Of a stretch of 64,000 nt of DNA, positions 1 to 41,471 are shown piece after piece. Location of the stretch: the UHGV virus genome UHGV-0312702; one strand, written 5' to 3'. Position numbers and translations under genes: made by a program. Each line of letters opens with the position of its first letter. Positions within the stretch are counted from its first letter, which is position 1. Origin of the DNA: a virus. Under the pieces are notes generated by a model. It ran no database searches. It had not been told where the DNA came from and saw only the letters and a list, made by a program, of their open reading frames with translations.

Positions 1-4914
<4,914 letters not shown>

Positions 4915-6090: not shown

Positions 6091-7443
6091 TTATTCGTAA
6101 GCCACTGTACCTTTCAAGTCAACATCCAAGATAGCCCCTGCTAAGATACCTGCGAAGGTAACATCTTTCAGGATACGAGCTTTCTTGTCTGCCAAAGCAA
6201 CTTGAGAGGCTTTAGGAACATTAACTGTGTAAGATGACAGGAAGTTTCTGTTGACTGCTCTTTGTAGAGAGGTTTCAATGACTTGACGAATACGGGTAAT
6301 ACCAGTATCATCATAAGTAATCTTACCACCCTTCTGGTTAATTAGCAAGTCTCTCAGAGAAGTTTTCAGGTCTGATTCTAACCAGTCAACGCCACGGACG
6401 ATATCAATCCATTCCCCACCAGAAGTAATCCCTCTACGAACCACTGGAACACCACCATCAAGGTCAATAAAGTTACAGTGACGTACATCTAAAGCAGACT
6501 TCTGAATACTTGTCAGAGGTCTCTGATTAGATGGTTGTAGAGAAGCTGCTACACCAGTTAGCTGAGCATTACCCCAAGCAATTGAACCTGCATCATATGG
6601 AGCACCATAAGCAATGTATGCCATCTCTGGATAGTCTTCTGCTGCTGCGTGATGCCACAAGCAAACTGTACGAGTGTACATATTCTTAGCAAGCTGTGCT
6701 GGAACATCATTTGCACTGGCTAATTCTGTACCTTGCAGGGCTGTTACATCAGAGTTAGCTGTAAAGAAGATTTTCTTGCGAGCCTGAATCTCAGAAGCCA
6801 TTGCTAAGACAAACTGTTGAGTTCTGTCTTCTGCTGCAATGAAATACCAGTCAGTAGAGTAAGCTTCGATAGCTGCCAGAGCAGTTGATGCTGTATCGGC
6901 AGTTGTACTTGCAATATACACAGTCTGTGCTGTAGTTGTTACTTTCACAAAGTCATTATCACCAGCTTTGGTAATAATCATTGTGGCAGAGCCATTGCTA
7001 CCAGTTACGTTCACAGAAACCTTATCTTTGATTGTTGGGTCAGCTTCAATCTGTGTTTTAAACTGTTGCAACACGTTTTCAGCAGTGTCTTCAGCTTGCG
7101 CTGTATACTGATATGGTTGAGAAATTCCACCGCCAGCAGCTACAGTAATTGAGTAGTCTGTACTTTCGGTAACAGCATCAGGAATTGATACAGTATACTG
7201 CATAGCACGTCTACCAATATAAAGCTGAGTTACTTTAGGAGTCTGACTCCAAAGTTGTTTAGCAGCCTTATATGCAGCAGTATTCTCATCGAAATCTTCA
7301 GCAACTTCAGTTAAGGAAGTGTAGCCACGCACTCTTTCTTCAAAGTTATCTGTTGAAGCTAAGAATAGTGGCAAACCAAAACCTTCTCTTGTAGTTCCTG
7401 CGGTGTTCAATGTAATATCTACATTAACAATTGGATTCCACAT
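6091..7443 (-). CDS. putative contractile tail sheath protein, 450 aa
   Basis: Size and position (upstream of tube, chaperones, tape measure) fit a myovirus sheath. Confidence 0.5.
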   Translation of the reverse strand: MWNPIVNVDITLNTAGTTREGFGLPLFLASTDNFEERVRGYTSLTEVAEDFDENTAAYKAAKQLWSQTPKVTQLYIGRRAMQYTVSIPDAVTESTDYSITVAAGGGISQPYQYTAQAEDTAENVLQQFKTQIEADPTIKDKVSVNVTGSNGSATMIITKAGDNDFVKVTTTAQTVYIASTTADTASTALAAIEAYSTDWYFIAAEDRTQQFVLAMASEIQARKKIFFTANSDVTALQGTELASANDVPAQLAKNMYTRTVCLWHHAAAEDYPEMAYIAYGAPYDAGSIAWGNAQLTGVAASLQPSNQRPLTSIQKSALDVRHCNFIDLDGGVPVVRRGITSGGEWIDIVRGVDWLESDLKTSLRDLLINQKGGKITYDDTGITRIRQVIETSLQRAVNRNFLSSYTVNVPKASQVALADKKARILKDVTFAGILAGAILDVDLKGTVAYE

Positions 7444-16616: not shown

Positions 16617-16692
16617 TGGAGAATCCGAAGGGACTCGAACCCTTATAAACCTGTTTTGCAGACAGGCACATAGCCATTTCTGTCACGGATTC
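16617..16692 (-). tRNA. tRNA-Cys (anticodon GCA)
   Basis: Hand-folded cloverleaf: acceptor CGGATTC pairs with GAATCCG, T-loop TTCGAGT, anticodon loop CTGCAAA, CCA encoded. Confidence 0.75.
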
Positions 16693-16696
16693 AAAT

Positions 16697-16789
16697 TGGA
16701 GGAAGATACCAGACTTGAACTGGTACACCGATTTCTCAGCTACTGGCAGTTTAGCAAACTGCTCCCTTACCTTTTAGGGTTAATCTTCC
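16697..16789 (-). tRNA. tRNA-Ser (anticodon GCT), class II with long variable arm
   Basis: Acceptor GGAAGAT/ATCTTCC, anticodon stem GCAGT/ACTGC with loop TTGCTAA, long variable arm, T-loop TTCAAGT. Confidence 0.7.
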
Positions 16790-16790
16790 A

Positions 16791-17525
16791 TTATTTCTGT
16801 AATGCGCTCTTCATTTCTGGTGTTGCAATAGTGTCAATCACACCAGTTTTACAAGCATCATCAAACCAGTCTGGTAAGATACCTGCTAAGAACCCATTGA
16901 TATTCGTTTTAAGGTACTCTGCAATAAGGGCAGCTTCTTCTTCAATCATCTGCACAACTTCATCTGCATAAGCTGTAATCTTTGAGATACCTTCATTAAT
17001 CTTACTAACAGCCTGATTAGCTAAATCAGAAACAGTATCAAGACCCTTATCAATAGCATCTTGTAAGTCACTTAATACATCATTAACGCTGTCTAGTGTA
17101 TCATTAATAGCATCAATAGCTTTTTGACCATACTCTGTAGCAACACCCATAATACCGCTGAATGGTGTACAACCAACTTGTTCTCCCGCTGCACCCATAA
17201 CATTGGAATATCCCTTTGCTACCTGCATACGTGATGAAAACTCGTCAATAGACTTTTGACCGTAGTCTGTTAGGGTCTTAGTAGTTGCTGTAGTGCTTGT
17301 CAGACTCGTTGTAAAGCTGTTTAGAAGGACTGTTGTAAGTCCAGCAGCAACAAGTTTTTCCTTCATTGCAGGGTCTGTTACAGAGCTAATAGAGCTTACA
17401 AGTGATGTAGAGGCAGCTACGGTTCCACCTAGAACTGCTGCACCAGTAATAAGGGGGTTAGAAAACCCTTTACCAGTTTTTAAGAGATTAAAAATCTCCT
17501 TACCTTGTCCTGTCATCTCTTTCAT
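16791..17525 (-). CDS. hypothetical Ser/Thr-rich protein embedded in tRNA island, about 245 aa
   Basis: ORF-track start (17588, GTG) would overlap tRNA-Phe; first ATG that clears the tRNA is at 17525. Confidence 0.5.
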   Translation of the reverse strand: MKEMTGQGKEIFNLLKTGKGFSNPLITGAAVLGGTVAASTSLVSSISSVTDPAMKEKLVAAGLTTVLLNSFTTSLTSTTATTKTLTDYGQKSIDEFSSRMQVAKGYSNVMGAAGEQVGCTPFSGIMGVATEYGQKAIDAINDTLDSVNDVLSDLQDAIDKGLDTVSDLANQAVSKINEGISKITAYADEVVQMIEEEAALIAEYLKTNINGFLAGILPDWFDDACKTGVIDTIATPEMKSALQK

Positions 17526-17543
17526 TAAGCACCTTTGAAATTG

Positions 17544-17618
17544 GTAGTCCAGTGGGATTTGAACCCTCTTCTCATGTTTTTCAGACACGCGCTTTAACCA
17601 TATAAGCTACTTGGACTA
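17544..17618 (-). tRNA. tRNA-Phe (anticodon GAA)
   Basis: Acceptor TAGTCCA/TGGACTA, anticodon stem CGTGT/ACATG, loop CTGAAAA, T-loop TTCAAAT. Confidence 0.7.
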
Positions 17619-17623
17619 TAAAT

Positions 17624-17700
17624 TGGGGTGACCTACGGGATTTGAACCCGTATAGACCATGTTCACAGCATGGGTCATTACCATTTATGATAAGGCCACA
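17624..17700 (-). tRNA. tRNA-His (anticodon GTG)
   Basis: Anticodon stem CCATG/CATGG with loop CTGTGAA; discriminator C; CCA encoded. Confidence 0.7.
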
Positions 17701-17730
17701 TTTAAGGACTCTCGTAAGAACCCTTAGAAG

Positions 17731-17806
17731 TGGCAGCGGCATAAGGATTTGAACCTTAATAGGACAGCTTCAGAGACTGTTGCATTGCCAGTTATGCTAT
17801 ACCGCT
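17731..17806 (-). tRNA. tRNA-Gln (anticodon CTG)
   Basis: Acceptor AGCGGTA/TGCCGCT, anticodon loop CTCTGAA, T-loop present. Confidence 0.65.
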
Positions 17807-17811
17807 AAATT

Positions 17812-17890
17812 TGGTACTCCATATCGGATTCGAACCGATACATAACACAGATTTTAAGTCTGGCCTCTCTGCCAATTGGAGTAATGGAGC
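17812..17890 (-). tRNA. tRNA with leucine anticodon TAA but class I architecture (short variable loop)
   Basis: Acceptor GCTCCAT/ATGGAGT, D-arm CTCC-AATTGGCAG-AGAG, anticodon stem CCAGA/TCTGT loop CTTAAAA, 7-nt variable loop, T-arm ATCGG-TTCGAAT-CCGAT, discriminator A. Confidence 0.6.
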
Positions 17891-17892
17891 AT

Positions 17893-17968
17893 TGGCGGGG
17901 GATGTTGGAATTGAACCAACTTCTTCGATTTCAAAGACCGAGGTTTTAACCTTGTAAACTAATCCCCT
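17893..17968 (-). tRNA. tRNA-Gln (anticodon TTG)
   Basis: Anticodon stem TCGGT/ATCGA loop CTTTGAA; T-arm GTTGG-TTCAATT-CCAAC; A1-C72 mismatch. Confidence 0.65.
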
Positions 17969-17976
17969 TTAAATCT

Positions 17977-18534
17977 TTACTTTCTTAGTGGATGAATAAA
18001 GAATGCCAACATAACTCTTTCCCTTGAGAATGCTCTTTCTTCTGGGACAACACTTTTAAGTTTCCACCCAACATAAATTCTCCAGTAAAATTGTTTACCA
18101 AAGACTTTAATTGATGGGATAAAAGCAAATAATCCCCAAGCATTGCTGTTCCACATTAGGAGATAACCTGTCTGATTATCTTCAGGGTTAGAACTTACGT
18201 TGATATTACCTTTCCACTTAGTAACATCTTTTACATCTCTTCCTAACACATGGTAAGAGAAGTTATAAGCTTTGTTTCTCCAGAGCCATCCAACTCTCTG
18301 CATATAAACACCGAGCTTACCAATCTTTCTAATCTTAGCCCATCGTTTGATATGACCTGCATCACCATCAATTGGGTTGTCATAAGTCTCCATCCATCTG
18401 AAACCAAAAGGCAGATGACCTTTCTTCTCACTGTAGAATGGGACTACGAAAGGTGCTAAGATAACTGCCAAGATTGCTGCAAATGGCTCTAACAAAGCTA
18501 AGAAAATCCATGAAGCATACTTCAAATATCTCAT
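17977..18534 (-). CDS. hypothetical membrane protein embedded in tRNA island, 185 aa
   Basis: ORF with hydrophobic N-terminus (IFLALLEPFAAILAVILAPFVVPF). Confidence 0.5.
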   Translation of the reverse strand: MRYLKYASWIFLALLEPFAAILAVILAPFVVPFYSEKKGHLPFGFRWMETYDNPIDGDAGHIKRWAKIRKIGKLGVYMQRVGWLWRNKAYNFSYHVLGRDVKDVTKWKGNINVSSNPEDNQTGYLLMWNSNAWGLFAFIPSIKVFGKQFYWRIYVGWKLKSVVPEERAFSRERVMLAFFIHPLRK

Positions 18535-18773
18535 TGTCTAATCCTAGTAAGGAGGTAAACATTATTATTTGTTTCTGAGTTTTCTGGTAAAGCTGTCTCA
18601 AAATTGACGCTTTTAAATTGTCTCCCACCAAAGTAATGACCAATAAATTTTTGTACTTTTATTGGGTCACATTCCCAGCCAACTTTCAAGAAAATGTGGG
18701 TATCTATAGTGGGAACCCTTACAAACTCAATACTATTGGAATTTTCATGTTCAACGACGATTAATGTTTGCAT
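18531..18773 (-). CDS. hypothetical protein, 80 aa
   Basis: ORF overlapping the start of the downstream gene by 4 nt. Confidence 0.4.
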   Translation of the reverse strand: MQTLIVVEHENSNSIEFVRVPTIDTHIFLKVGWECDPIKVQKFIGHYFGGRQFKSVNFETALPENSETNNNVYLLTRIRQ

Positions 18774-18791
18774 AAATCTCTCTTATTTATC

Positions 18792-18867
18792 TGGCGCAGG
18801 ATAAGGGACTTGAACCCCTATTAACAGCTTCGTAGACTGTTGCTCTATCCATTTGAACTAATCCTGC
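18792..18867 (-). tRNA. tRNA-Arg (anticodon ACG)
   Basis: Acceptor GCAGGAT/ATCCTGC, anticodon loop CTACGAA, CCA encoded. Confidence 0.7.
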
Positions 18868-18872
18868 AAAAT

Positions 18873-18950
18873 TGGTGTTCCAAGACGGATTCGAACCGTC
18901 ACTAGTACAAGGTTTGAGCTTGCATCCTCTGCCAATTGGGATACTGGAAC
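18873..18950 (-). tRNA. tRNA with leucine anticodon CAA but class I architecture
   Basis: Acceptor GTTCCAG/TTGGAAC, D-arm TCCC-AATTGGCAG-AGGA, anticodon stem GCAAG/CTTGT loop CTCAAAC, 6-nt variable loop, T-arm GACGG-TTCGAAT-CCGTC; only 84 nt available between flanking tRNAs. Confidence 0.6.
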
Positions 18951-18951
18951 A

Positions 18952-19026
18952 TGGTACTCACTAAAGGACTTGAACCTTTTTCTTCATCTTGTAAGGGTGA
19001 TGTTTTACCATATAAACTAAGCGAGT
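18952..19026 (-). tRNA. tRNA-Val (anticodon TAC)
   Basis: Acceptor ACTCGCT/AGTGAGT, anticodon loop CTTACAA, T-arm AAAGG/CCTTT. Confidence 0.65.
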
Positions 19027-19122
19027 GTGAAAGAGGTCTGAAGTTGTGCCACTAACTCAACTCCGTGGAATTTGTTACGGTCTTCAGTTGACTCAAAGTG
19101 GTCTTTCACTTGACCTCTGAAT
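19027..19122 (-). ncRNA. candidate structured small RNA in tRNA-cluster spacer (not a tRNA)
   Basis: 96-nt spacer with complementary ends (AGAGGTC ... GACCTCT) and nested complementary segments (GTGAAAGA/TCTTTCAC, CTGAAG/CTTCAG); no T-loop motif. Confidence 0.3.
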
Positions 19123-19198
19123 TGGTGCTCCCACAAGGATTCGAACCCTGATAAGTTGCTTACAAGGCAACCGTAATAGCCAATTATACGATAGGAGC
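19123..19198 (-). tRNA. tRNA-Thr (anticodon TGT)
   Basis: Anticodon stem GTTGC/GCAAC with loop CTTGTAA; T-loop TTCGAAT. Confidence 0.7.
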
Positions 19199-19205
19199 AT
19201 TAATT

Positions 19206-19280
19206 TGGAGCATCCAGAGGGAATCGAACCCTCAACCTCAGTTTGGAAGACTGTAATTTTCCCGTTTAAACTATGGATGC
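19206..19280 (-). tRNA. tRNA-Gly (anticodon TCC)
   Basis: Acceptor GCATCCA/TGGATGC perfect 7 bp, anticodon loop CTTCCAA. Confidence 0.7.
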
Positions 19281-19286
19281 ACTAAT

Positions 19287-19362
19287 TGGTGGAGAAGCAG
19301 GGAATTGAACCCTGTACTTAAGTTTGCAAAACTTATGTTTTAACCATGTAAACTACATCCCC
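19287..19362 (-). tRNA. tRNA-Ala (anticodon TGC)
   Basis: Anticodon stem TAAGT/ACTTA loop TTTGCAA; G3-U70 wobble pair present (Ala identity element); T-arm CAGGG-TTCAATT-CCCTG. Confidence 0.7.
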
Positions 19363-19368
19363 AATGTT

Positions 19369-19444
19369 TGGTACAGGTGGAGGGAATTGAACCCATCGTC
19401 TTACTGATTAAGAGTCAGCCGCATAACCATTTTGCTACACCTGC
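19369..19444 (-). tRNA. tRNA-Lys (anticodon CTT)
   Basis: Acceptor GCAGGTG/CACCTGT, anticodon loop CTCTTAA. Confidence 0.65.
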
Positions 19445-19451
19445 ATTAATT

Positions 19452-19528
19452 TGGTACACCTAGAGAGATTCGAACTCACACTGAGCAGATTCTAAGTCTG
19501 CTGCCTCTACCAGTTGGGCTATAGGTGC
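19452..19528 (-). tRNA. tRNA with leucine anticodon TAG but class I architecture
   Basis: Acceptor GCACCTA/TAGGTGT, D-arm GCC-CAACTGGTAGA-GGC, anticodon stem GCAGA/TCTGC loop CTTAGAA, 5-nt variable loop. Confidence 0.6.
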
Positions 19529-19786
19529 ATTAAATCTTTTTAGAGAACTTCTAAGAACCTAAGCAACAAGGTTCCACAACAAGCTGTAATAACCTTAGAA
19601 GCCCTCTAAAAAGACCTAAAAAGGTCTTTGCATAGTCTTGTTTAATCCGGTGACTAGAACCTTTGGAGAGCTTGATATTATCTCTTCTCCGTGACACCTA
19701 CTAGGTGCTTTACTGTGCGTGTACGACAATACACGAGGGATACCAAAGCAACATCCGAATGAAGCTTGGCTTTAAATCTTATTAGG

Positions 19787-19874
19787 CGGTAAGTAAAGGA
19801 GTCGAACCCTCACCGTATCTCTACAGTGGCAACTGTTTTCAAGACAGTTTGGCTACCATTAGCCGCTACCTACC
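19787..19874 (-). tRNA. tRNA-Ser (anticodon TGA), class II
   Basis: 88 nt, acceptor GGTAGGT/ACTTACC, anticodon stem ACTGT/ACAGT loop CTTGAAA, long variable arm; CCA not encoded. Confidence 0.6.
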
Positions 19875-19887
19875 CCTAATAAGACTT

Positions 19888-19970
19888 TGGCATGGGACGG
19901 AGGAGTTGAACCCCTTTGAAACGGTTTTGGAGGCCGTTGCTCATGCCTTAGAGTCTTAACATCGTCCCAC
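19888..19970 (-). tRNA. tRNA-Trp (anticodon CCA), atypically long 5' half
   Basis: Acceptor GTGGGAC/GTCCCAT, anticodon loop CTCCAAA, T-arm GGGG-TTCAACT-CCTC; D-arm region about 7 nt longer than canonical. Confidence 0.5.
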
Positions 19971-20112
19971 ACTATAATTCGAAACTTACCGTATTATCTC
20001 AACACTGTAAAGCCCCTTCTCAGATTATTTACATGTTCTGGAAAACATGAGATACAGACCACCTCCCTACAGGAAGACCCGCTTAGGTCGTCTAAGTAAT
20101 CTGCTAACTAAT

Positions 20113-20189
20113 TGGCACACCCTACAGGATTCGAACCTGTAACTAACGATTTAGAAGACCGTTGCTCTATCCAATTGAACTAAGGGTGC
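20113..20189 (-). tRNA. tRNA-Arg (anticodon TCT)
   Basis: Anticodon stem ACGGT/ATCGT loop CTTCTAA; acceptor GCACCCT/AGGGTGT. Confidence 0.65.
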
Positions 20190-20526
20190 ATTAATCTTTA
20201 AAGACTCTCTTAGAAAGCCCTTAAAGATGCCCACCTTATTAATCATACCGTGGGCTAGTACGCCAAATTCTTTGATGAGGGATTGGAAGACCTCACTGGT
20301 GTTTAGCCTATCAAGCTACTGCCAGAAAAACATTGTCGTTTGCATTTATTTTAAATTTGCAAAATAGACGCTACGCAACGAAAACTATTCAGAATATGTA
20401 CAACAAATTTCCCCACATTGTGTTACGTCTAACGCTCATGTATTGGTGTTTGAATTATACATATTATGAATTATTTTTAGTTACTATAAAGTAGTCACAT
20501 CTCAATGTCAACAACTTTATTGAAAT

Positions 20527-20601
20527 TGGTTGTAGGTGAGGGTATCGAACCCTCTTCTAACGGTTATCAGCCGTTTGCATTACCATTTATGCTAACCCAC
20601 A
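20527..20601 (-). tRNA. tRNA-Ile (anticodon GAT)
   Basis: Anticodon stem AACGG/CCGTT loop CTGATAA; T-arm GAGGG-TTCGATA-CCCTC. Confidence 0.7.
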
Positions 20602-20602
20602 A

Positions 20603-20680
20603 TTGGAGGTTCAGGTGGGAATCGAACCCACATTCATAGGGCTTATGAAACCCCTGCATTACCTTATCTGCGACTGAACC
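20603..20680 (-). tRNA. tRNA-Met (anticodon CAT), elongator-like
   Basis: Perfect acceptor GGTTCAG/CTGAACC, anticodon stem GGGGT/GCCCT loop TTCATAA. Confidence 0.6.
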
Positions 20681-20684
20681 ATAT

Positions 20685-20760
20685 TGGTAGAAGTGGAGGG
20701 ATTCGAACCCATCGCCTGTCAGATTAAAAGTCTGCCGCATCACCATTCTGCTACACTTCC
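20685..20760 (-). tRNA. tRNA-Lys (anticodon TTT)
   Basis: Acceptor GGAAGTG/CACTTCT, anticodon loop CTTTTAA. Confidence 0.65.
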
Positions 20761-20909
20761 ATTAAATTATCTTTGTAGATAAGCTACCCAGACTTGCTTA
20801 AGGTCTGTAGCGATGTGCCTTGTTGGGTTTAAATCTAGAATTTACCCTTTCACCCTTTGTGGTCGCATACTCACAGGTAAGCTTAATAGCTCACCTACAA
20901 AGATAATTA

Positions 20910-21041
20910 CCAGACCGTTGTTTATCATCTTAAGTGCTACCATTACACCAACTCGACATCTGCCGAGTGAAGGAATCGAACCTTCGCCTTTTCTTTACCG
21001 GAGAAATAGATTGTTTAAGTTTTGCTGTAAACGGTCTTCTG
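20910..21041 (-). repeat. bounded spacer unit D (CCAGACC ... TGCTGTAAACGGTCTTCTG) containing a tRNA-like T-arm
   Basis: Shares both end motifs with units at 21055, 21484, 21637; contains GAAGG-AATCGAA-CCTTC (tRNA T-arm signature at 20969-20985) but no canonical anticodon loop or acceptor pairing. Confidence 0.5.
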
Positions 21042-21054
21042 TAAATTTGTTGAG

Positions 21055-21128
21055 CCAGACCAAGTTTTAAATTTTCAAAATTAAATTGGCTTGAAATTTC
21101 ATACATTCTTGCTGAATTTGGTCTTCTG
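21055..21128 (-). repeat. bounded spacer unit A (CCAGACC ... TGCTGAATTTGGTCTTCTG)
   Basis: Same terminal motifs as units B, C, D; the two ends are mutually complementary (AGACC/GGTCT). Confidence 0.5.
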
Positions 21129-21215
21129 CTCCTTTAAAGAATACTCGCAAGAACTCTTTAAGGGAGGGGCTAAATAGCCCTCTCAAAACATCATTTTGAA
21201 ATACTTATTATAATT

Positions 21216-21293
21216 TGGCGGTTACGAAGGGATTTGAACCCTCATCATCTCCCGTGACAGGGGAGTATTTTAACCAGATTAAACTACATAACC
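21216..21293 (-). tRNA. tRNA-Asp (anticodon GTC)
   Basis: Anticodon stem CTCCC/GGGAG loop CTGTCAC; acceptor GGTTATG/CGTAACC. Confidence 0.65.
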
Positions 21294-21298
21294 TTTAT

Positions 21299-21386
21299 TG
21301 GTGTGCCGTGTAGGAGTCGAACCTACCGAGTCTCAATGACAAGGGATTTACAGTCCCCACCGCTACCATCTACGGGATAACGACAC
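21299..21386 (-). tRNA. tRNA-Tyr (anticodon GTA), class II
   Basis: 88 nt; acceptor GTGTCGT/ACGGCAC, anticodon stem GGGA/TCCC loop CTGTAAA, long variable arm. Confidence 0.65.
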
Positions 21387-21395
21387 ATTTTAATT

Positions 21396-21472
21396 TGGCG
21401 GTTAGTCAGGGATTCGAACCCTGTGCCATTCGCTTAACAGGCGACCGCACATACCTTATGTGCTTCCTAACC
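21396..21472 (-). tRNA. tRNA-Asn (anticodon GTT)
   Basis: Anticodon loop CTGTTAA; T-arm CAGGG-TTCGAAT-CCCTG. Confidence 0.65.
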
Positions 21473-21483
21473 TTAATACATTG

Positions 21484-21542
21484 CCAGACCGTGTTTTTCT
21501 TTTATCCGCAAAAAGTAGTTTGTTGCTGAATACGGTCTTCTG
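21484..21542 (-). repeat. bounded spacer unit B (CCAGACC ... TGCTGAATACGGTCTTCTG)
   Basis: 59-nt unit between tRNA-Asn and the second CAT tRNA with the same end motifs. Confidence 0.5.
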
Positions 21543-21548
21543 CAAAAT

Positions 21549-21625
21549 TGGAGGCGGGTGCAGGAGTCGAACCTGCCGATACCATGCTAATGAGACATGT
21601 GAGACGCCCTTTCTCTATACCCGCA
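21549..21625 (-). tRNA. tRNA with anticodon CAT, second copy (initiator Met or Ile-lysidine type), atypical
   Basis: Anticodon stem CATGT/GCATG loop CTCATTA (pyrimidine at 37); acceptor pairs only with a 1-72 mismatch or a 1-nt register shift; D-stem GAGA/TCTC. Confidence 0.5.
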
Positions 21626-21636
21626 ATTCTTAATGA

Positions 21637-21709
21637 CCAGACCAAATCTCTTCTTTGTCCGATTGAATGTCAGATGAATAAGATTAAATTTGCTGTAATT
21701 GGTCTTCTG
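21637..21709 (-). repeat. bounded spacer unit C (CCAGACC ... TGCTGTAATTGGTCTTCTG)
   Basis: 73-nt unit between the CAT tRNA and tRNA-Glu with the same end motifs. Confidence 0.5.
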
Positions 21710-21716
21710 TCAAAAC

Positions 21717-21791
21717 TGGTGTCGTAGACAGGATTCGAACCTGCGAGCAACTGATTGAAGGTCAGGTGGCTAACCATTTGCCTTCTACGAC
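21717..21791 (-). tRNA. tRNA-Glu (anticodon TTC), C at position 33
   Basis: Perfect acceptor GTCGTAG/CTACGAC, anticodon stem CTGA/TCAG with loop CCTTCAA. Confidence 0.55.
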
Positions 21792-21792
21792 A

Positions 21793-22149
21793 TTAAACCA
21801 TTGTAATTCCACTATGAACCTCTCTGTGGCAATTAGCGCATAGCAAAACACATTTATCAAGTTCTTTTTTAACCTTTTCCCAAGATGCACCCATAAGTTT
21901 TGATGGTGTATTCTCTTTTTCGTTTGGGTTAAGGTGATGCCATTCTAAAGCATTTTTACATTTATTATAGCCACAAATTATGCAACTATCGCCATAAAGC
22001 TTATATGCTTTCTCCCTATTGGCATCCTCTCTAAGTTTTGTCCTTAATGCACAACATTTTAGACAATTTACTCTATTACCGGCGTTACCATTCTTATGAA
22101 TGCTATGTTCAGTTAAACCATGAACTGGACATTCTTTTAAAAATCTCAT
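21793..22149 (-). CDS. HNH homing endonuclease, about 118 aa
   Basis: Cys-rich zinc-finger region plus HNH motif (EWHHLNP ... LLCANCHREVH); ORF-track start at 22227 overlaps tRNA-Pro, so the start is placed at the ATG at 22149. Confidence 0.7.
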   Translation of the reverse strand: MRFLKECPVHGLTEHSIHKNGNAGNRVNCLKCCALRTKLREDANREKAYKLYGDSCIICGYNKCKNALEWHHLNPNEKENTPSKLMGASWEKVKKELDKCVLLCANCHREVHSGITMV

Positions 22150-22166
22150 AGTAACCCCTTTAAATT

Positions 22167-22243
22167 TGGTCTCTGTTGGAGGACTTGAACCTCCGGCCTT
22201 ACCGCCCCAAACGGAACGCTCTACCAAGCTGAGCTAAACAGAG
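22167..22243 (-). tRNA. tRNA-Pro (anticodon TGG)
   Basis: Perfect acceptor CTCTGTT/AACAGAG, D-arm GCTC-AGCTTGGTA-GAGC, anticodon loop TTTGGGG, T-arm GGAGG-TTCAAGT-CCTCC. Confidence 0.75.
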
Positions 22244-22408: not shown

Positions 22409-23824
22409 TTACCAGATGTAACGGTCAATCATTACTGCTTTGAGCATTACGCTGATTGGGTCAAACTTCTCACCACCAAGCAGGGCTTTTAAAGTGGCTG
22501 GGGAGAACCCTGATACCATTGCTACACCGTTATCCTTAACAGACACTTCGCAAGTACCACTACGGTTTGCTAAGTACCAGAATACCAGTTGTGGCATTTC
22601 GTATCCAGCTTTTTTGTACTTACTACGAATTGCTTCAAAGTTTGTACGACCATTTGCACCATCAACCTGATTGAACTCCATATCAGAGAAGATGATAAGC
22701 TTACTTGGCATATCTTTCTGAGTCAAGTTGTTTCTCTTGCCTGTCTCAAGAATACGGTCAAAAGCTGCTTGTAAGTTGGTTGAACCATATTCAACATGAC
22801 GCATTACCTGACGGTGACGGTTTCGTAAATCACCACTCAGTTCGATGAAATGAGGGTTTGTTGAATAAACCATTAACTCGTTCTTAAAGCAACCTGTATT
22901 GCGTTCTGCTACATACAAGGCAAGTGATACACCAATATCGAGGGCAGTAATTGAGCCAAGATTCACCCAAGACATTGAGCTTGAAACATCAGTCATACAC
23001 AAGATGTTTTCACCTTCTGCCATCCAGTTTGGTAGTGCTTTCCACTGCTCATTAGCAACATCTGCATTACCATACTTGATAGATTTAATCACATCGTATG
23101 GATAAACAGCACCAGCATTAATCTTAGTCTCACCCTTTGATAAGGACTCAACGTAAGCTTTGTAGCGTTCTCCATCTTTACGGTTAAATAATTTTTGGTA
23201 ACGTGCAGCAGCAAGTGAAGGAATCTTACTGTAGTCAATCTTACCAAACTCATTAGCAGAGATTTTTTGTTCAACTGTATCAGATAGTGCAGACAGCAGT
23301 GTGCGGTACTCTTTCTCGCTCAAGTTTGCAAACTTACAGAAACGTTTTACAAACTGTTTGTGACGTGGTTTTACTCGTGGTAACCACTTAGCTGCTAAAC
23401 CTGCTGTTGCAGGGTCTAGTAAAGCTGCTTCTAAATGTTTGAAGGCATCTGTCTCAAAACGAGTACCTACAAAGATTTTGAAGTCATCAAAGCGACCAAG
23501 CTCTGCAATCTTATCCATAATGCGAAGAACCTGTGTAGGCTCTAAAACTTTATCTTCAATCGCTTGAAGTAAAACAGTTCGGAAAGCCTTACGCTCACCC
23601 ATACCTTCTCGTACATCTCGCATATGCAGTAAAATACGAACTGCAACATCAACATCCTCATGCAAAGCTTTGTAGAACAAGTCTGGTAAGATTTCTACAT
23701 TGCTACGGCTAGAACCAGCAGCTTTGTAAAAGTCTACAAGAGCAGACATTGATGAAGTATGGTTTACAGCACCATTTTCAGTTCGACCTGCATGAAGGTG
23801 CGCATGTTTAAATAATTCGCTCAT
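22409..23824 (-). CDS. rsr: Ro60/Rsr-like protein (TROVE-like N-terminal region plus vWA domain), 471 aa
   Basis: C-terminal vWA with MIDAS DxSxS (CMTDVSSSMS) followed by ...LIIFSDMEFN...; segment VYPYDVIKSIKYG ... ENILCMTDVSSSM parallels the Ro60 region preceding its vWA domain; recognition from memory, not searched. Confidence 0.65.
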   Translation of the reverse strand: MSELFKHAHLHAGRTENGAVNHTSSMSALVDFYKAAGSSRSNVEILPDLFYKALHEDVDVAVRILLHMRDVREGMGERKAFRTVLLQAIEDKVLEPTQVLRIMDKIAELGRFDDFKIFVGTRFETDAFKHLEAALLDPATAGLAAKWLPRVKPRHKQFVKRFCKFANLSEKEYRTLLSALSDTVEQKISANEFGKIDYSKIPSLAAARYQKLFNRKDGERYKAYVESLSKGETKINAGAVYPYDVIKSIKYGNADVANEQWKALPNWMAEGENILCMTDVSSSMSWVNLGSITALDIGVSLALYVAERNTGCFKNELMVYSTNPHFIELSGDLRNRHRQVMRHVEYGSTNLQAAFDRILETGKRNNLTQKDMPSKLIIFSDMEFNQVDGANGRTNFEAIRSKYKKAGYEMPQLVFWYLANRSGTCEVSVKDNGVAMVSGFSPATLKALLGGEKFDPISVMLKAVMIDRYIW

Positions 23825-25534: not shown

Positions 25535-25906
25535 ATGAAGGCTAAGAGTGCAAAAGACTTTTATTGCTTCCTACAATCCTATATTAATTCCGTGGAGAAA
25601 GGTGAGAGATATAATCTTAACGATGTTATTGCATCACCTTTAACATGGAGACTAAGTAGATGGCCTGAAGAAGATATCACACCAACTAGTGAACACCCTA
25701 CCTACAAACCAGATATTAATCTCCCAGATTCAGAAAAGTTACTATACCCAATGTTCCACATTGTTGGGCTTGGTACGTTTCTTATGGATATTCAGTATGT
25801 AATTGGTAAGGGTTATAAGGTAGAAGGTATTGTTGTTGGTGATGTATCTCCACAACATAAAGGCTATTTTAGATTAAACGCACGTTTAGAGGCTAAAAAG
25901 AAATGA
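25535..25906 (+). CDS. hypothetical protein, 123 aa; paralog of the N-terminal domain of the next gene
   Basis: Shares KAK...RY...WPE.DI...YKPD...LLY...MD.QY...LNA.L pattern with the first about 120 aa of 25903-27036. Confidence 0.55.
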   Translation: MKAKSAKDFYCFLQSYINSVEKGERYNLNDVIASPLTWRLSRWPEEDITPTSEHPTYKPDINLPDSEKLLYPMFHIVGLGTFLMDIQYVIGKGYKVEGIVVGDVSPQHKGYFRLNARLEAKKK

Positions 25907-27036
25907 TTAAAGCAAAGACTTACCCAGACTTCAAAGAGTTTGTAAAGGGCTTCGTTGCAAATGTAAAGGCTGGTAAGAGATATGATTTTAGAACATATCA
26001 AGAAGCTATTTTGCCACTTACCTATAGTTCATATTGGCCTGAAGCTGATATCGCAGAAGTTGAGAAGTTTGACTACAAACCAGACTACAAAGTACCTTTT
26101 AGTGATGATTTGCTTTACAGCATCGGTGCTCAAATGAGAACTTCTGACTTCTTCATGGATTTACAATATGCAATTGTCAATGGTAAAGATGTTGATACAG
26201 TGTATTGTGAATGGTTGGCAAGAGTTAAGCCGTTCTCAATGTTAAATGCTAAGTTGAAGGATGCTATCAAACCACCATCAATCACTCAGCAACCAACCAA
26301 TCAGACAGTTAATGAGGGCGGTACACTTACCTTAAGCATTGTTGCAGCTAATGCCACAGGGTATCAGTGGAAGAAGGGTGATGAGGATATCACTAGTGCT
26401 ACCTCTGCAACTTACACAAAACAGTCAGTTGTTCCTTCTGATGCTGGTTCATACACTTGCGTTGTGTCTGGAGAGGGTGGAACAAGTGTAACTTCAGATG
26501 CAGCAACAGTCACTGTGAATGCCTTACCAGTGATTACCAAGCAACCTTCTAACCAGACCATTAATGAAGGTGGAAACATCAGCTTAGCAGTTACTGCAAC
26601 AGGTGCAACTGGTTATCAATGGAAGAAAGATGGTTCTGACATCCCTTCAGCTACAAATGCCACATATAGCAAATCTGGTGCACTTCCAGCAGATGCTGGT
26701 TCATACACTTGCGTTGTAACAGGTGCGGGAGGTTCTGTAACTTCTAACCCTGCAACAGTTACTGTGAAAGCTCTACCAGTTATCACTCAACAACCAACCA
26801 ATCAGGAAATCACTGAAGGTGAGACCTTAACGCTGAATGTTGTGGCAACAGGTGCAACAGGTTATCAGTGGAAGAAGGGTGGGGAAAACATCCCAGATGC
26901 AACGACTGCAACTTACACCAAAGAGGGTGCAACTGCTGCTGATGCAGGAAGCTACACTTGTGTAGTTACTGGCGCAGGTGGCTCTGTAACATCTAGTGCG
27001 GCAACAGTTACAGTTAACCCAGCAGGGGAGGCATAA
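25903..27036 (+). CDS. protein with paralogous N-terminal domain and three tandem Ig-like repeats, 377 aa
   Basis: Three about 83-aa repeats each with PTNQT(V/I)NEGG ... ATGYQWKK ... AGSYTCVV(S/T)G ... ATVTV; stop overlaps the endolysin start. Confidence 0.6.
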   Translation: MIKAKTYPDFKEFVKGFVANVKAGKRYDFRTYQEAILPLTYSSYWPEADIAEVEKFDYKPDYKVPFSDDLLYSIGAQMRTSDFFMDLQYAIVNGKDVDTVYCEWLARVKPFSMLNAKLKDAIKPPSITQQPTNQTVNEGGTLTLSIVAANATGYQWKKGDEDITSATSATYTKQSVVPSDAGSYTCVVSGEGGTSVTSDAATVTVNALPVITKQPSNQTINEGGNISLAVTATGATGYQWKKDGSDIPSATNATYSKSGALPADAGSYTCVVTGAGGSVTSNPATVTVKALPVITQQPTNQEITEGETLTLNVVATGATGYQWKKGGENIPDATTATYTKEGATAADAGSYTCVVTGAGGSVTSSAATVTVNPAGEA

Positions 27037-40685: not shown

Positions 40686-41471
40686 TTAGTTCTTTGCGTC
40701 TAAGAAGGTAACTTCTGATGATGAGAAAATTTCCTCAACATCCTCATCAGTTCTTGCATAGATATATGTATCTGCATCACTGCCAAATGTTACTGCAATC
40801 CTGTGATTGTTCTTTGACAGGTGGGTAACTAGAGCGTTACTCAGAGACATCTTTTCAACCGGAGGGTTACTTTGATGTATCTTACCTTTTCTTCGTCTGA
40901 AGAGGGTAACTGTATTGTCTGTGAACGTTACTACACCTGCAAAGTATTCTGGTTCACAGTAGTTCTTCCAACCTGAGCGTAACTTGTGGTACATCTCTCC
41001 TTCATAGACATACAGATACACATCTACACTCTTCATCACCTGATTAATGATAACTGTGACGGCTTGAGGGTCAAGCCCACCGATACCTGCACCAATCATA
41101 GGTAACCCGACTTTCTTCAACTGATTGACTTCACAGTATCTGTTAAGCTGTTTCAAAGATGACTCTAAAGCACTGTATCGGGCATCTTTACCAGTCTTAA
41201 GCTGAGTGTAAAGGTTAGCTATACGGCCTTGTTTTAAACGTGCTACAGAGAAATTACCTAGTAGATTTTCACAGGGTTTGTTGCCTATACCACCTGCATA
41301 CAGATAGACTTCTGTATCAGTTTCATATGCTTTTGGGTAAAATTTAGAAATCTTGTCAGCAATACCTGCACCCATTAAATTCATACAGTTGCAGCCATGA
41401 CCAATGATATCAAATTTACCTTTATCAAATGCGTCAAAAATACTACCATTGATGATTTTTACAATACCCAT
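40686..41471 (-). CDS. macro-domain-like protein (putative ADP-ribose binding/processing), 261 aa
   Basis: N-terminal IVKIINGSIFDAF ... DIIGHGCNCMNLMGAGIA resembles the macro-domain Gly-rich ADP-ribose-binding motif; assignment from motif memory only. Confidence 0.45.
   Translation of the reverse strand: MGIVKIINGSIFDAFDKGKFDIIGHGCNCMNLMGAGIADKISKFYPKAYETDTEVYLYAGGIGNKPCENLLGNFSVARLKQGRIANLYTQLKTGKDARYSALESSLKQLNRYCEVNQLKKVGLPMIGAGIGGLDPQAVTVIINQVMKSVDVYLYVYEGEMYHKLRSGWKNYCEPEYFAGVVTFTDNTVTLFRRRKGKIHQSNPPVEKMSLSNALVTHLSKNNHRIAVTFGSDADTYIYARTDEDVEEIFSSSEVTFLDAKN

Follow-up and report, generated by a model that had tools for sequence, protein, structure and literature searches.

The tRNA array of the viral genome UHGV-0312702, analysed over 64,000 nucleotides (the window), contains three transfer RNA (tRNA) genes that have leucine anticodons and a short variable region, which raises the question of whether they specify leucine at all and, if so, how they are recognised. 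A review of 2023 still describes tRNALeu as long-armed everywhere but in animal mitochondria (PMC9976931), and a preliminary description of the window rightly noted the departure from this textbook rule, suggesting either altered leucine identity rules or charging with another amino acid and recoding of UUR and CUA codons. The interpretation favoured here, with a probability of roughly 0.78, is that they are genuine leucine-accepting tRNALeu of the short-armed kind (type I, or class I), carried in the array of a Felix O1-like lytic phage and reading UUA/UUG, CUA and other CUN codons. The UAA and CAA anticodons would read UUA/UUG and the UAG anticodon would read CUA plus other CUN codons, the leucyl-tRNA synthetase (LeuRS) of the host, Escherichia coli or Salmonella, would charge all three, and they would supplement leucine codons used far more by this phage, with 38.8% GC, than by the host.

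The genes are listed below; tRNA types are those given by ARAGORN on the basis of the anticodon, and R1 is a covariance model trained only on 36 distinct single-copy actinobacterial type I leucine tRNAs, the E-values of which are rough.

17812..17890, minus strand: tRNA-Leu(UAA), type I, 79 nt; ARAGORN, Rfam RF00005 (47.5 bits), structural parse, model R1 (69.0 bits)
18873..18950, minus strand: tRNA-Leu(CAA), type I, 78 nt; ARAGORN, Rfam RF00005 (43.6 bits), structural parse, model R1 (74.3 bits)
19452..19528, minus strand: tRNA-Leu(UAG), type I, 77 nt; ARAGORN, Rfam RF00005 (57.3 bits), structural parse, model R1 (83.8 bits)

All three Rfam scores exceed the RF00005 gathering score of 29, placing the genes in the tRNA family. 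The structural parses are as follows.

Leu(UAA): GCUCCAU UA CUC CAAUUGGCAGA GAG G CCAGA CUUAAAA UCUGU GUUAUGU AUCGG UUCGAAU CCGAU AUGGAGU A CCA
Leu(CAA): GUUCCAG UA UCC CAAUUGGCAGA GGA U GCAAG CUCAAAC CUUGU ACUAGU GACGG UUCGAAU CCGUC UUGGAAC A CCA
Leu(UAG): GCACCUA UA GCC CAACUGGUAGA GGC A GCAGA CUUAGAA UCUGC UCAGU GUGAG UUCGAAU CUCUC UAGGUGU A CCA

The layout is shared, with a fully paired 7-bp acceptor stem (G-U pairs included), U8-A9, a D arm consisting of a 3-bp stem and an 11-nt loop (CAAUUGGCAGA in UAA and CAA, CAACUGGUAGA in UAG), a 7-nt anticodon loop, the T loop UUCGAAU, discriminator A73 and an encoded CCA. Individual features are G1-U72 in Leu(UAA) and Leu(UAG), a mismatch C27/U43 in Leu(UAA) and a mismatch U50/U64 in Leu(UAG). 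The anticodons, coordinates, lengths of 77-79 nt, variable loops of 5-7 nt and related D-loops given in the preliminary description are all recovered by these methods.

Regarding the variable region, the parses give GUUAUGU (7 nt, UAA), ACUAGU (6 nt, CAA) and UCAGU (5 nt, UAG), each ending in U48, and none of them is the region of at least 10 nt forming a stem-loop that defines class II. Over 481 parsed leucine tRNAs the length of this region is bimodal, with 4-8 nt in 397, 10-19 nt in 83 and 9 nt in a single case, so the short form is a real class rather than an artefact of a threshold. The earlier argument that flanking tRNAs leave no room for a long arm applies to the 3' flank of each gene and to the 5' flanks of Leu(UAA) and Leu(CAA), where neighbours lie 1-7 nt away, but the 5' flank of Leu(UAG) borders a 256-nt gap; what settles the matter is that the ends of each gene are fixed by the fully paired 7-bp acceptor stem, which makes a hidden arm impossible. 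A gene-boundary artefact or a shifted anticodon is likewise ruled out, since the same gene ends and anticodon loop are obtained with ARAGORN, Rfam and model R1, none of which finds the overlooked arm or alternative anticodon position that the preliminary description had proposed to look for. Thermodynamic minimum-free-energy folding of the single sequences gave no cloverleaf for UAA, only a partial one for CAA, and weak z-scores. Single unmodified tRNA sequences commonly fail to fold as a cloverleaf in such calculations, and the cloverleaf was judged by covariance models and covariation counts instead. The three leucine tRNAs of the window thus lack a long variable arm, while the serine and tyrosine tRNAs of the same array retain theirs, as had been noted.

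16697..16789, minus strand: tRNA-Ser(GCU), normal 21-nt variable arm; ARAGORN, parse
19785..19874, minus strand: tRNA-Ser(UGA), normal 20-nt variable arm; ARAGORN, parse
21299..21386, minus strand: tRNA-Tyr(GUA), normal 15-nt variable arm; ARAGORN, parse

Model R1 separates the three genes from the other tRNAs around them. The best of the latter, Arg-UCU, reaches 50.5 bits and the remaining window tRNAs 12-48 bits; type I leucine tRNAs from other phages (Erwinia, Pseudomonas, Cronobacter, Enterococcus and crAss) lie at 65-83 bits, apart from a divergent crAss copy at 53, and the type II (long-armed) leucine tRNAs of E. coli, T4 and T5 score 47-53, 49 and 39 bits, respectively. Scores of 69-84 against at most 50.5 for the other window tRNAs indicate membership of the type I tRNALeu family, and to judge by this model the phage genes belong to the same family as the native type I tRNALeu of actinobacteria.

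The pattern of change within the family suggests that these genes are maintained. The acceptor stems of 397 type I leucine tRNAs comprise 234 different sequences and are fully paired in 372 of the tRNAs. For ten type I genes from gammaproteobacterial phages (three each in the window and Erwinia phage Prophecy, two each in Cronobacter phage CR3 and Pseudomonas phage 254), 96.5% of pair cells are standard pairs and compensatory double changes occur at 18 of 20 pairs, a degree of covariation that none of 500 shuffles matched and no slid register approached. The acceptor stem can be wholly replaced, as in Leu-CAA with GUUCCAG in the window and GGCGUAA in the Erwinia phage, around a D arm that is near-invariant. 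Retention of the D arm together with replaced but still paired acceptor stems is a signature of selection, operating in hosts that lack a native tRNA of this kind.

The window belongs to Felixounavirus, with 93% coverage and 96% identity to Escherichia phage ZX4221, and over the tRNA region genomes of Felixounavirus (myoviruses of Escherichia, Salmonella and Shigella) align at 94-96% identity and 91-94% coverage. The genes are not new: many of the matching records are annotated with 'tRNA-Leu (x3)', and the description of the Felix O1 genome, published in 2010, lists Leu-TAG (78 nt), Leu-CAA (78 nt) and Leu-TAA (79 nt) without remark on their shape (PMC3185647). A Felixounavirus comparison lists or counts the tRNAs without comment, variable arms go unmentioned in a global survey of viral tRNAs, and literature searches for short-arm tRNALeu in phages returned no description; as far as could be found, it is the class I architecture that has gone undiscussed.

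The short-arm genes are not confined to this phage, a point that the preliminary description missed: type I tRNALeu is widespread in phages and native in Actinomycetota. Searches by blastn with Leu(UAG) of the window found tRNA-Leu of the same length in phages of Mycobacterium, Streptomyces, Gordonia, Pseudomonas, Cronobacter, Klebsiella, Enterobacter and Enterococcus and in a crAss phage, and the phages that were fetched carry short leucine tRNAs beside long serine and tyrosine tRNAs. Leucine tRNAs are 74-76 nt in mycobacteriophage ArcherS7, 74-75 nt as annotated in Cronobacter phage CR3 (Ser 84 and 92 nt, Tyr 85 nt), 76 nt with a second copy of 82 nt in Streptomyces phage StarPlatinum, 76 nt with a long-arm copy of 86 nt in Enterococcus phage Bop, and 75 and 78 nt in the crAss phage cr111_1; in T4 and T5 the tRNALeu genes are of the ordinary kind, at 87 and 85 nt, respectively.

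A scan of IMG/VR for the type I signature pattern gave at least 120 loci with at least 198 short and at least 33 long leucine tRNAs, and with serine and tyrosine tRNAs that were almost all long. This sample is biased by its own pattern, and most type I sequences were chosen by a pattern fixing C13 and the T loop, which inflates frequencies at these positions. In a second, leucine-neutral sample anchored on a tRNA-Asn motif, type I accounted for 15 of 51 leucine tRNAs (29%, 95% confidence interval 17-44%), as against 0 of 40 serine and 2 of 31 tyrosine tRNAs. The same pattern scan applied to one genome per bacterial species gave at least 120 loci, of which 80 were listed, most of them from Actinomycetota; among the matches listed, 77 of 167 short leucine tRNAs are the sole tRNA in an 8-kb locus and the remainder lie in tRNA arrays. 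In Mycobacterium the flanks of the type I gene are syntenic across eight species at 77-90% nucleotide identity, which indicates native chromosomal genes. No similar tRNA was detected in 5,426 complete E. coli genomes, and a search for copies in E. coli prophages or plasmids likewise gave none, the plasmid matches all being actinobacterial.

The short-loop tRNALeu(TAG) of a Mycobacterium tRNA array (PMC6582537) and the tRNALeu of Bxz1-like mycobacteriophages resemble the window genes in having a short loop and in being clustered in what is probably a mobile set, and the D arm of Leu(CAG) in ArcherS7, a Bxz1-like phage, is identical to that of the window. The mycobacterial cases differ in that type I tRNALeu is native to their hosts, which are Actinomycetota and whose LeuRS presumably accepts such tRNAs. 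A study of M. tuberculosis refers in passing to tRNALeu-2, -3 and -5 in particular as long-looped (PMC11541572).

Some further features of the wider family were observed. An anticodon stem with only four paired positions occurs in 117 of 397 type I leucine tRNAs (29%) and in 6 of 83 type II; the unpaired position is 27-43 in the type I examples inspected, as with C27/U43 in Leu(UAA) of the window. Erwinia phage Prophecy, the record of which annotates no tRNAs, has a type I tRNA-Leu with anticodon AAG (positions 4532-4609 of its locus L371). This anticodon is unusual in bacteria, and its A34 would need deamination to inosine. The array of Enterococcus phage Bop includes an annotated transfer-messenger RNA (tmRNA, ssrA; positions 6301-6648 of its locus L006) directly after a pair of type II and type I leucine tRNAs.

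Regarding leucine identity, the three tRNAs were compared position by position with E. coli leuZ, leuX and leuW and the tRNALeu of T4 and T5. The identity set listed for E. coli LeuRS includes U8-A14 and the A15-U48 Levitt pair (PMC9976931; PMC6614811), and the enzyme needs neither the anticodon nor the long arm, arm-less tRNALeu variants staying active (PMC9976931). All three window tRNAs have A73, which is found in 99% of 394 type I leucine tRNAs, together with U8, A14, A15 and U48, and have G18G19 and A20a placed as in E. coli with the T-loop partners U55/C56 and U54-A58. The D loop, CAAYUGGYAGA in the window and RAAUYGGUAGA in E. coli, is of equal length, the chief difference being at position 13. 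The window tRNAs therefore carry every listed determinant of E. coli LeuRS. The suggestion of altered identity rules fits in part only: the reported determinants, among which the arm does not figure, are all retained.

The type II tRNALeu of E. coli (leuZ, leuX, leuW), T4 and T5 share with the window tRNAs the anticodons, A73, U8 and U48, a 3-bp D stem, an 11-nt loop of the form N-A14-A15-Y-Y-G18-G19-Y-A20a-G-A and, in some, G1-U72, but have variable arms of 13-15 nt. The cores differ as well, with G9, G12-C23, a purine at 13 and mostly G59 in type II tRNALeu, and A9, C12-G23, C13 and A59 in the window, so that the window tRNAs have a re-built tertiary core and are not the product of a simple or recent deletion of the arm. 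The engineered arm-less tRNALeu of E. coli, minimalist tRNAs cited in a review (PMC9976931), make the same point about the enzyme, which requires A73 and the D/T-loop tertiary contacts and not the arm; those are laboratory constructs derived from type II, while the phage tRNAs are natural and have another core. Animal mitochondrial tRNALeu also has the class I shape, with A73 and A14 as determinants, but is degenerate, AT-rich and floppy, is served by a dedicated mitochondrial LeuRS and has no sequence relation to the phage tRNAs.

The meaning of the codons was assessed in 11 window genes aligned with orthologues in Escherichia phage phiSUSP1 and Citrobacter phage Moogle (7,632 codons; 60-93% protein identity), including rIIA, rIIB, NrdA, NrdB, NrdD, nicotinamide phosphoribosyltransferase, PRPP synthetase and an exonuclease, with CTT and CTG as controls.

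TTA (n=125): unchanged 55, other leucine codon 55 (33 of them CTT, CTC or CTG), non-leucine 15
TTG (n=93): unchanged 20, other leucine codon 58, non-leucine 15
CTA (n=64): unchanged 7, other leucine codon 53, non-leucine 4
CTT, control (n=195): unchanged 83, other leucine codon 82, non-leucine 30
CTG, control (n=115): unchanged 42, other leucine codon 63, non-leucine 10

Identical codons included, TTA, TTG and CTA pair with leucine codons in 84-94% of cases, like the controls, and where the partner is not leucine it is one of the usual I, V, M and F, without enrichment of any alternative residue. The interchange of TTA, TTG and CTA with CTT, CTC and CTG shows that the codons read by the phage tRNAs are ordinary leucine codons. 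The proposal that the tRNAs carry a different amino acid, so that UUA, UUG and CUA are recoded in the proteins of phage or host, is therefore scarcely credible. It draws on the atypical class I shape only, along with mitochondrial precedents, the yeast tRNAThr(UAG) and Ashbya tRNAAla(UAG) (PMC7609411), and it conflicts with the interchange rates, which equal those of the control codons, and with the leucine acceptance of a relative in the same family described below. The window tRNAs also have neither G3-U70 (Ala) nor G73 or a long arm (Ser), and lack the anticodon bases required by most other synthetases; as host tRNALeu shares the codons, recoding would moreover create proteome-wide ambiguity at about half of the leucine codons.

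Leucine codon shares in the window genes (9,690 codons) are TTA 25%, TTG 14%, CTT 29%, CTA 11%, CTG 16% and CTC 4%. In E. coli about half of the leucine codons are CTG and some 4% are CTA. The anticodons UAA, CAA and UAG are what codon supplementation would call for, a role that the authors of the Felix O1 genome had proposed for TTA (PMC3185647).

The closest characterised case is in Streptomyces coelicolor, which has one type I tRNALeu(CAA) with the variable loop ACAGC (Fan, Huang, Ji and Wang, NAR 2019; PMC6614811). Its LeuRS leucylates both tRNA types, as does the human mitochondrial LeuRS, and attempts to delete the type I gene failed; acceptance of type I is decided by the leucine-specific domain of LeuRS, and charging requires a loop no shorter than 5 nt in which nucleotide 48 is present (PMC6614811). 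The authors regarded the type I case as rare and as tied to the LeuRS of Streptomyces, and did not mention phages (PMC6614811). The window loops, of 5-7 nt and ending in U48, reach this minimum, and the phage tRNAs share with the S. coelicolor tRNA a leucine anticodon, a loop of similar kind (ACAGC beside UCAGU, ACUAGU and GUUAUGU), A73 and U8-A14. The D-arm motif CCCAAYUGGCAG is shared with a related Streptomyces gene and with other actinobacterial relatives. Differences are C48 in the S. coelicolor tRNA and U48 in the phage tRNAs, a 12-nt D-loop in the related Streptomyces gene as against 11 nt, and loops of 6-7 nt in two of the three window tRNAs as against 5 nt in S. coelicolor. The S. coelicolor gene is also chromosomal and undeletable, and its product is charged by a LeuRS whose leucine-specific domain is specialised, whereas the window genes belong to a lytic phage of hosts without type I tRNALeu.

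Several observations weigh against or limit the favoured interpretation. E. coli LeuRS failed to leucylate the S. coelicolor type I tRNALeu(CAA) and is said to charge type II only (PMC6614811). When sequences were compared by nearest neighbour without the anticodon and variable loop, the window leucine tRNAs were not nearer to type II tRNALeu than to other isotypes, and the isotype scores were low and scattered over Arg, Lys, Glu, Ile and Leu, which speaks neither for nor against leucine identity. Host tRNAs also read TTA, TTG and CTA, which makes the codon test compatible with low-level mischarging. As there is no overall nearness to host tRNALeu, the leucine assignment rests on determinants, family membership and codon behaviour. 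Among the closest non-leucine neighbours of window Leu(CAA) in this comparison were genes called 'tRNA-Ile(TAT)' by ARAGORN in two loci (L119 and L255), with variable regions of 22-25 nt, which may be parsing errors or else tRNAs that combine a long arm with an unusual anticodon.

The failure of the E. coli enzyme and the decisive role of the leucine-specific domain (PMC6614811) would suit a reading in which the phage tRNAs, though expressed, are charged poorly or not at all by enterobacterial LeuRS, being hitch-hiking relics of a spreading tRNA cassette or having a role outside translation; the absence of a similar tRNA from the E. coli genomes searched would also mean that the host enzyme never had to serve such a substrate. 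This is very doubtful in view of the type I isoacceptors kept across the relatives, the acceptor stems that are completely different between phages yet fully paired around an invariant D arm, the encoded CCA and complete set of E. coli determinants including U48, the match of the anticodons to the leucine codons over-used by the phage, and the charging of arm-less E. coli tRNALeu (PMC9976931). Leucine acceptance thus remains the preferred reading, and charging by the host enzyme is expected because LeuRS reads the discriminator base and the D/T-loop elbow and not the arm. Enterobacterial LeuRS likely leucylates Felix O1-type tRNAs, a rating based on U48, the E. coli-length D loop and upkeep by selection in enterobacterial phages. 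Neither a synthetase domain nor an obvious tRNA-charging factor was detected among the larger open reading frames of the window.

As to why leucine tRNAs could lose the arm, SerRS and bacterial TyrRS recognise it (PMC7609411; PMC12360207), and the arm would be absent in Leu and kept in Ser and Tyr because these two synthetases need it and LeuRS does not. These synthetase requirements suffice to account for the pattern.

An adaptive explanation, compatible with leucine charging, is that the short arm is favoured since it evades toxins or nucleases of the host or of rival phages that dock on or cut the long arm; Ser and Tyr could not lose the arm without losing their synthetases. The proportions of the leucine-neutral sample agree with this, as does the occurrence of type I tRNALeu in phages of Proteobacteria, Firmicutes and Actinobacteria and in human-gut crAss phage without recorded host, when at least E. 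coli has no such tRNA of its own. T4 infection reportedly cleaves host tRNALeu1 in the extra arm. The nucleotidyltransferase toxin MenT3 anchors on the long variable loop of tRNASer (PMC11541572), and phage tRNAs evade anticodon nucleases (PMC10264068). Nevertheless, T4 and T5 do well with ordinary type II tRNALeu, some phages carry both types, and the native syntenic Mycobacterium gene within the family means that descent and a dispensable arm suffice. Furthermore, we know of no defence system that targets the tRNALeu arm in enterobacteria, and such escape is considered quite unlikely. Bacterial Schlafen was considered as an arm-directed agent and dropped, as RorSlfn5 cuts the anticodon arms of class I tRNAs and has no link to the leucine arm.

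A broader proposal may be formulated, that a phage-borne short-arm lineage making up roughly a third of viral tRNALeu is kept in hosts with long-arm tRNALeu only, either because ordinary LeuRS, including that of E. coli, accepts it or because arm-directed toxins and nucleases miss it. It is unlikely to hold as stated, though either branch would have consequences: acceptance by ordinary LeuRS would contradict the published view of E. coli LeuRS as a type II-only enzyme, and invisibility of the arm would amount to counter-defence through tRNA architecture rather than through anticodon-loop mutations.

The array in which the three genes lie includes a further tRNA gene found by Rfam.

16617..22243, minus strand: tRNA array with the three Leu genes and interspersed small open reading frames; 25 tRNAs by ARAGORN and one by Rfam only
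21720..21791, minus strand: tRNA-Glu(UUC); Rfam 55.4 bits, missed by ARAGORN

This tRNA-Glu has A8 and an apparent C33 where U33 is near-universal (anticodon loop CCUUCAA), and a Glu-TTC gene is annotated at the equivalent place in Felix O1. Two non-coding gaps within the array, at 19529-19784 (256 nt) and 20190-20526 (about 340 nt), may hold small RNAs without annotation; the second gives weak, sub-threshold tmRNA-like matches (15-23 bits, E 0.002-0.06), and the tRNA region of T5 has several 'stable RNAs of unknown function'. Adjoining the array, a 471-amino-acid open reading frame (22409-23824, minus strand) matches DUF2828 and DUF7788 and is called 'vWFA protein' in relatives, and in Streptomyces phage StarPlatinum a 'Ro-like RNA-binding protein' (77-1705 of its locus) lies beside the tRNA array; a Ro/TROVE-type RNA-binding protein may be recurrently associated with phage tRNA arrays. 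Elsewhere in the window are a 377-amino-acid protein of three immunoglobulin-like domains (25903-27036, plus strand) and a 261-amino-acid macro-domain protein (40686-41471, minus strand), with a possible role in ADP-ribose binding or hydrolysis.

Thus, the leucine tRNAs of the window are a phage member of a known but under-appreciated type I family, and the same tRNA type is now seen in a classic lineage of Salmonella and E. coli typing phages. Type I tRNALeu occurs commonly among phages from several phyla and belongs to the native tRNAs of many Actinomycetota, and care is needed with annotation tools and identity rules that take the long arm as diagnostic of leucine. The tRNALeu of Felix O1 offers a cheap and decisive test system for LeuRS specificity, and phage arrays provide natural, compact tRNALeu scaffolds for engineering and possibly a new angle on why phages carry tRNAs. 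For the phage of the window itself the conclusion is an ordinary one, that it carries leucine tRNAs matched to AT-rich codon usage.

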